A stretch of 64,000 nt of DNA, from assembly GCF_003334785.1 (NCBI RefSeq), contig NZ_QOWV01000011.1, one strand, 5' to 3'. Source of the DNA: Escherichia coli (GTDB lineage: Bacteria; Pseudomonadota; Gammaproteobacteria; Enterobacterales; Enterobacteriaceae). Position 1 is the stretch's first letter. Every line of letters begins with the position of its first letter. The notes below the pieces were generated by a model. That model was not told where the DNA came from. It did not search any database and worked only from the letters and a program-made list of their open reading frames with translations. Position numbers and translations under genes: made by a program. Shown in pieces: positions 16,331 to 18,858 of this stretch.

Positions 16331-18858
16331 ATGAAATTTATGAACAGGACCAGTCCCTATTATTGTCGCCGCTCAGTACTTTCCTTATTGATATCTGCCT
16401 TGATATATGCCCCGCCCGGGATGGCTGCCTTCACTACTAATGTTATTGGTGTGGTAAACGATGAGACTGTAGATGGCAACCAAAAAGTGAATGAACGAGG
16501 TACAACAAATAACACTCATATTATCAACCATGGCCAGCAGAATGTTCATGGCGGGGTATCTAATGGAAGTCTTATTGAATCTGGTGGATATCAAGATATA
16601 GGAAGTCATAACAATTTTGTGGGGCAGGCTAATAATACAACCATTAACGGTGGCAGACAGTCAATTCATGACGGGGGTATTTCCACAGGTACGACAATCG
16701 AGAGTGGCAATCAGGACGTTTATAAAGGGGGTATCAGCAATGGAACGACAATTAAGGGCGGTGCTTCACGCGTAGAGGGAGGGAGTGCGAATGGAATACT
16801 CATTGATGGTGGTAGCCAGATAGTAAAAGTTCAAGGGCATGCTGATGGTACAACGATAAATAAGTCTGGCTCTCAGGACGTAGTACAAGGAAGTCTGGCA
16901 ACGAACACAACCATAAATGGTGGTCGACAGTATGTTGAACAGAGCACAGTAGAAACAACAACCATTAAAAATGGCGGTGAGCAAAGAGTATATGAGAGCC
17001 GTGCGCTGGACACGACGATTGAAGGCGGAACTCAGTCTCTGAATAGTAAGTCAACGGCAAAAAATACGCATATCTATTCTGGTGGCACGCAAATTGTTGA
17101 TAACACCAGCACCTCGGATGTTATTGAAGTTTATTCTGGTGGCGTGCTTGATGTTAGTGGTGGTACGGCAACAAATGTTACCCAGCACGATGGTGCAATT
17201 TTAAAAACTAACACTAACGGTACGACGGTGAGCGGTACGAATAGTGAAGGTGCATTCTCCATCCACAATCACGTGGCAGACAATGTGTTGCTGGAAAACG
17301 GTGGTCATTTAGACATAAACGCATATGGTTCGGCAAACAAGACGATTATTAAAGATAAAGGAACAATGTCAGTTTTAACCAATGCTAAAGCTGATGCGAC
17401 CCGAATAGATAATGGCGGGGTTATGGATGTTGCAGGAAACGCGACAAATACCATAATTAATGGTGGCACACAGAATATTAATAATTATGGCATAGCCACA
17501 GGCACCAATATCAACAGCGGAACGCAAAATATCAAAAGCGGCGGGAAAGCTGACACAACAATTATATCCTCCGGGAGCCGGCAGGTTGTTGAGAAAGATG
17601 GTACGGCAATTGGCAGCAATATTAGCGCCGGAGGCTCGCTGATTGTCTATACCGGCGGTATTGCACATGGGGTTAACCAGGAGACGGGCAGTGCTTTAGT
17701 TGCCAACACGGGTGCAGGGACTGATATCGAAGGATACAACAAGCTCTCTCACTTCACTATTACCGGAGGGGAGGCTAATTATGTTGTGCTGGAAAATACC
17801 GGCGAACTGACGGTAGTGGCTAAAACCTCGGCGAAAAATACTACCATTGATACTGGCGGTAAGCTGATTGTCCAGAAGGAGGCTAAAACAGATAGCACCA
17901 GACTTAATAATGGCGGCGTTCTGGAGGTTCAGGACGGTGGTGAGGCTAAGCATGTTGAGCAACAATCCGGCGGCGCATTAATTGCTTCCACGACCTCCGG
18001 AACACTTATCGAAGGAACCAACAGTTATGGTGATGCTTTCTACATCAGGAATTCAGAAGCTAAAAATGTAGTGCTGGAAAACGCTGGCTCATTAACAGTC
18101 GTCACTGGTTCCCGCGCAGTTGACACGATTATTAATGCCAACGGCAAAATGGATGTTTATGGAAAAGATGTTGGCACTGTACTCAATAGTGCTGGCACCC
18201 AAACAATATATGCCAGTGCCACTTCTGATAAAGCAAATATCAAAGGTGGCAAGCAAACGGTATATGGTTTAGCCACTGAAGCAAATATCGAAAGTGGTGA
18301 ACAAATTGTTGATGGTGGGTCAACAGAGAAAACACACATCAATGGTGGCACGCAAACCGTTCAGAATTATGGTAAGGCAATCAATACCGATATCGTCTCT
18401 GGCCTACAACAAATTATGGCAAACGGGACAGCGGAAGGTTCCATTATTAATGGGGGTTCACAGGTAGTTAATGAGGGCGGTCTGGCTGAAAACTCGGTGC
18501 TTAATGACGGCGGCACACTCGATGTGCGGGAGAAAGGCAGCGCAACGGGGATACCCGCAGTATATATCGTGAACTGGGCGCAACGCTGAGTTACAACATG
18601 CGTCTGGGGAACGGTATGGAAGTTGAGCCGTGGCTGAAGGCGGCTGTGCGCAAAGAATTTGTCGATGATAACCGGGTGAAAGTGAATAGTGACGGTAATT
18701 TCGTCAATTATTTGTCGGGCAGACGTGGAATATACCAGGCAGGTATTAAAGCCTCATTCAGCAGTACGTTAAGCGGGCATCTTGGGGTGGGGTATAGCCA
18801 TAGTGCCGGTGTGGAATCCCCGTGGAACGCGGTAGCTGGTGTGAACTGGTCGTTCTGA
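16331..18858 (+). pseudogene. Autotransporter adhesin (ypjA-like), internally deleted and frameshifted
   Basis: Signal-peptide-like N-terminus (MKFMNRTSPYYCRRSVLSLLISALIYAPPGMAAF), long imperfect approx 19-aa passenger repeats (GG.Q.V..G.A..T.I..GG), stop at 18589, then a different frame carries the last residues of an autotransporter beta-barrel ending ...AGVNWSF. Confidence 0.65.

Follow-up and report, generated by a model that had tools for sequence, protein, structure and literature searches.

A single 2,062-nt deletion truncates the adhesin-like autotransporter gene ypjA/ehaD in a strain of Escherichia coli

In the 64,000-nt stretch of Escherichia coli DNA analyzed here (contig NZ_QOWV01000011.1; hereafter, the window), positions 16340 to 18858 on the plus strand are almost certainly a strain-specific pseudogene of ypjA/ehaD, a null allele that arose through one deletion between GATAC repeats. 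The kind of lesion is already known, and the case is that of a known nonessential adhesin gene that is null in the present strain.

The ypjA locus and its surroundings

The gene is identified as ypjA/EhaD because of its 99.9% nucleotide identity and its conserved synteny. In a BLAST comparison with K-12, window positions 16100 to 18554 align without gaps to ypjA and its upstream region (2,455 nt, 99.88% identity; K-12 locus L002, 4901 to 7355), and positions 18550 to 19031 align, again gap-free, to the ypjA 3' end and the sequence downstream (482 nt, 100% identity; L002, 9413 to 9894). A megablast search of 5,426 complete E. coli genomes with positions 16200 to 18900 matched the gene annotated as “ypjA: adhesin-like autotransporter YpjA/EhaD.” Intact K-12 ypjA (b2647) comprises 4,581 nt and encodes 1,526 aa; window positions 16340 to 18589 correspond to its initial 2,215 nt, after which 11 codons in the wrong frame lead to a TGA. 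The order of genes (tRNA ileY, ypjCB/DUF5507 pseudogene, recombinase remnant, 120-nt hypothetical open reading frame [ORF], ypjA, and ssrA att site) is collinear with the annotated regions of K-12, PSJ-16, Res13-Lact-ER07-18, and FDAARGOS_1248. Judged from these alignments, 16340 to 18858 is the ypjA/ehaD orthologue at the chromosomal locus between ileY and ssrA, and it shares locus, neighbors, and an AIDA-repeat passenger with K-12 ypjA and enterohemorrhagic E. coli (EHEC) ehaD. YpjA has been grouped with the biofilm-associated Ag43/AIDA-I autotransporters (review PMC9289746), and PMC12547504 presents it as a homologue of EhaD with a biofilm-enhancing effect.

Several features of the surrounding DNA were recorded in their own right. 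The tRNA at 13229 to 13304 (+), called as Met (CAT) by ARAGORN and annotated as tRNA-Ile in its RefSeq equivalent, is presumably ileY, in which case a lysidine-modified CAT anticodon would explain the Met/Ile discrepancy. The ypjCB/DUF5507 gene (14055 to 15428, +) is interrupted by an internal stop that divides it into neighboring ORFs of 160 aa and 263 aa; K-12, PSJ-16, and FDAARGOS_1248 have it annotated as a pseudogene of the same form, while strain N96 has an intact gene of 1,455 nt.

Between ypjA and the tmRNA gene ssrA (39454 to 39816, −) lies an integrative island of ~20.4 kb (19032 to 39453), where a degenerate att copy, TGGTGGGCTGGCG (19018 to 19030), faces the 3' end of ssrA, TGGTGGAGCTGGCG (39454 to 39467). 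This island is unlike the CP4-57 of K-12 and is 100% identical in FDAARGOS_1248 and 200112; in FDAARGOS_1248, the annotation of the matching region includes an integrase, a serine recombinase, two ParB-family genes, a relaxase, and an ankyrin-repeat protein. Within the island, two neighboring genes that overlap by a single nucleotide (30368 to 33387, +) encode a 704-aa NACHT-domain protein and a 301-aa RelA/SpoT-domain protein. The NACHT protein had no match in PADLOC 2.0, and the RelA/SpoT-domain protein had only a weak one, to PDC-S33 (E = 8e-5); the two may form an uncatalogued antiphage defense pair. Three tandem 49-nt units with the conserved core AAATACGCTTCGCGCA occupy an intergenic part of the island (23031 to 23164) and look like iterons or a regulator-binding array.

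One deletion between GATAC repeats

The two K-12 alignment blocks share a 5-nt overlap in the window. The pentamer GATAC is present as a direct repeat at both K-12 breakpoints and as one surviving copy in the window, at 18550 to 18554 (+), which is the deletion junction according to BLAST against K-12, PSJ-16, and FDAARGOS_1248 and a direct display of both breakpoints. Alignment to full-length ypjA thus puts the junction within the interval of 18540 to 18600 in which the original prediction had expected it. The missing block measures 2,062 nt, equivalent to ypjA nt 2216 to 4277 (or 2211 to 4272, if the other of the two repeats is taken to be the missing one), and is absent elsewhere in the 64-kb window, where it finds only a trivial 31-nt match. 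As 2,062 leaves a remainder of 1 when divided by three, the deletion by itself shifts the reading frame.

The internal deletion and the frameshift that had been predicted are therefore both present, but they are the product of one 2,062-nt event and not of two. The title of the original prediction leaves room for a reading with two lesions, namely an in-frame deletion and an independent frameshift; this reading is refuted by the alignments, in which neither flank shows a gap relative to intact alleles anywhere before the junction is reached, and by the length of the block, which is not a multiple of three, and we assign it practically no probability. The nearest complete genome, FDAARGOS_1248, carries an intact 4,581-nt ypjA, from which the window differs by one mismatch in 2,655 nt of left flank and by none in 551 nt of right flank, with no gaps in either. 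By this comparison, the lesion is a single and recent one, and the allele is intact in all other respects. It is an illegitimate deletion, probably of the replication-slippage or microhomology-mediated type, between GATAC pentamers separated by 2,062 nt, by which codons 739 to 1426 were removed and the frame was shifted, so that translation would end 11 codons past the junction.

A shortened gene of this kind could also be produced if the repetitive passenger had collapsed during assembly or sequencing and the real gene were intact. The AIDA repeats do make ypjA internally repetitive, and a 400-nt query centered on the junction was matched in one piece in none of the 5,426 complete RefSeq E. 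coli genomes. However, because the breakpoints share just the 5 bp of GATAC, with no long collapse-prone repeat, and the right one is located in the nonrepetitive part that encodes the barrel, it is unlikely that a repeat collapsed during assembly. In addition, an independently assembled Logan contig, ERR4578769_288, is 100% identical to window positions 16238 to 18660 across the junction, and the deletion is thus not an error private to the present assembly. This contig encodes the exact 749-aa product and is recorded for 10 samples in the gene-position index; it is the single contig that supports the allele outside the window. The original prediction had considered that a sequence error might conceal an intact beta-barrel; no such barrel was found in frame, and the identical Logan contig speaks against an error. 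Overall, we regard an artefactual origin as very improbable and retain a genuine deletion as the preferred reading.

The truncated product and the remains of the barrel

The truncated ORF (16340 to 18589, +) comprises 749 codons and a TGA at 18587 to 18589. Its residues 1 to 738 are native YpjA, differing from K-12 up to the junction only by D51N and R273S, and residues 739 to 749 are a frameshifted tail, PAVYIVNWAQR, read from the barrel region. In-frame ATGs are found at 16331, where the gene had been predicted to begin, and at 16340; the RefSeq annotation of K-12 ypjA, however, places the start at the equivalent of 16340 and not 16331. Since a Shine-Dalgarno-like AGAGG lies 9 nt upstream of the ATG at 16340 but directly abuts that at 16331, the former is the better start.

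The N-terminus, identical to that of K-12 YpjA, carries an intact probable Sec signal peptide, MNRTSPYYCRRSVLSLLISALIYAPPGMA (16340 to 16426, +), in which a basic n-region, a hydrophobic core, and GMA-A as the likely cleavage site can be read. The retained passenger of AIDA-type (PF16168) beta-helix repeats (Pfam and NCBIfam) is encoded at 16481 to 18553 (+). A Pfam scan of the 752-aa translation from 16331 gave eight AIDA matches at an E value of ≤0.001 across residues 67 to 741 and no match to the Pertactin domain, and NCBIfam models gave partial matches to Ag43/AIDA-I and to TIGR04415 repeats. The predicted long repetitive passenger in an ORF ending at 18589 is thereby confirmed, and the predicted signal peptide is probable; the predicted length of about 750 aa agrees with the 749-codon ORF, but native YpjA accounts for only 738 aa of it.

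The domain layout of what was lost was taken from Pfam on K-12 YpjA residues 700 to 1526. AIDA repeats extend up to residue ~946, followed by the Pertactin domain (PF03212, the autochaperone region) at 1057 to 1179, a Pro-rich linker at ~1179 to 1240, and the autotransporter beta-domain (PF03797) at 1265 to 1504. Compared with K-12 ypjA, the window gene has therefore lost, with codons 739 to 1426, the last AIDA repeats (~739 to 946, about 200 aa), the autochaperone/pertactin domain, which is contained wholly within the deleted segment, the linker, and approximately two-thirds of the barrel. The original prediction had described the loss as one of the translocator, which is included, but the loss extends to passenger, autochaperone domain, and linker as well. 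It had also held the translocator to be almost wholly missing; this is true of the product, but about one-third of the barrel DNA survives out of frame.

This 3' remnant (18553 to 18858, +) covers YpjA codons 1426 to 1526 and the original TGA (18856 to 18858). It reads TRSIYRELGATLSYNMRLGNG...AGVNWSF up to the stop, and its 101 codons are 100% identical to those of K-12 and match positions 333 to 432 of 432 in the autotransporter barrel model TIGR01414 (NCBIfam, E = 6e-19), in line with the prediction that the last barrel residues continue in another frame. The two frames differ (16340 mod 3 = 2; 18553 mod 3 = 1), and the remnant is out of frame and thus untranslated. A complete in-frame beta-barrel (PF03797/TIGR01414) is accordingly missing, the residual piece being located past the stop at 18587 to 18589. 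The 86-codon ATG-initiated ORF at 18598 to 18858 belongs to this remnant and does not represent a gene. Downstream, a hairpin with the arms AAAGCCCAC and GTGGGCTTT around an ATCT loop (18870 to 18891, +; −15.9 kcal/mol, z = −4.9 by RNA folding) is a probable transcription terminator that has been retained; it is not called by a simple terminator scan because its T-run is short. Upstream of ypjA, a promoter scan scored no better than shuffled sequence.

In type Va autotransporters, a C-terminal 12-stranded barrel is required for BAM-dependent outer membrane insertion and for translocation of the passenger. In this strain, ypjA is devoid of two defining features of a functional member of this class, the autochaperone domain and the in-frame barrel. 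The remaining ORF would yield a signal peptide and an AIDA-repeat beta-helix of ~700 aa, with neither autochaperone domain nor linker nor barrel. Because the barrel is needed for BAM-dependent insertion and translocation, such a product would be exported to the periplasm at most, where its degradation is expected, and would not be displayed on the surface.

A different view of the same ORF is that the gene still works and encodes a barrel-less AIDA-repeat protein of ~75 kDa that is periplasmic, released in vesicles, or exported via another translocator. The annotated start and its upstream AGAGG, the signal peptide, and all 738 native codons are intact, and substitutions relative to K-12 number just two. 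Yet, against the intact neighbor allele, only one mismatch accompanies the deletion in 3.2 kb of aligned flank, and the intact 5' part therefore reflects recency rather than selection. Moreover, the 11-codon tail is frameshifted barrel sequence, and no type Va passenger is known to be secreted when its own barrel and autochaperone are missing. A functional product thus has very little probability, and a nonfunctional, recently truncated allele remains our interpretation.

Occurrence and decay of ypjA in E. coli

The exact 749-aa product is absent from a collection of 15 billion proteins, and the allele is rare and lineage-specific. Of the 5,426 complete genomes, 2,740 keep at least 80% of the query spanning 16200 to 18900 (megablast), which in effect represents the retained 5' part, and in 2,499 the 2,062-nt block is preserved to at least 80%. 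Within E. coli, ypjA belongs to the accessory genes; its presence varies, and it has often decayed. A search of the literature for ypjA as a pseudogene, truncated, or deleted returned nothing relevant. Adhesion by K-12 ypjA was reportedly seen only under artificial expression (in work from 2005 by Roux et al. in J Bacteriol), which is consistent with easy loss, and the present loss was probably selectively neutral.

Other strains have arrived at the same outcome in the same gene and at the same locus. In PSJ-16 and Res13-Lact-ER07-18, ypjA is annotated by PGAP as a “frameshifted” pseudogene of 4,157 nt and 3,261 nt, respectively, and in HUSEC2011 it is a PGAP pseudogene cut by an IS3-family element. 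The breakpoints of all three alleles differ from the GATAC junction of the window.

Many genomes also gave matches of 16% coverage, which were considered as possible heavily deleted copies of ypjA. This was rejected in the one inspected, O26:H11 11368, in which the match is a paralogous remnant adjoining ymgJ/minE (L006, 2253 to 2965), presumably the counterpart of ycgH/ycgI in K-12. The median of two match places per genome suggests that this minE-adjacent remnant, seen in the one genome inspected, is widespread. It too has been reduced by deletion, but at another chromosomal locus than ypjA and with loss of the entire passenger, such that a ypjA-like leader (89% identity) is fused to the last ~115 barrel codons (~95% identity). 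The deletion in the remnant ends at the equivalent of position 9377 in the K-12 locus L002, 36 to 41 nt from the right breakpoint in the window; a shared breakpoint was accordingly rejected, and because of this offset the two deletions are independent. Their nearness may be a coincidence or may point to a local deletion hotspot. That the barrel-coding segment around ypjA nt 4,237 to 4,277 constitutes a recurrent deletion hotspot in autotransporter decay in E. coli, or that the barrel-less passenger serves a periplasmic or vesicle-associated role, we consider improbable.

For annotation, the locus is best labeled a ypjA pseudogene, with 18598 to 18858 left uncalled. To mark the lineage of this strain and its relatives, the GATAC junction could be used. 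The strain itself would be one without surface display of YpjA/EhaD, an accessory biofilm-linked adhesin that about half of the complete E. coli genomes either lack or carry in decayed form.
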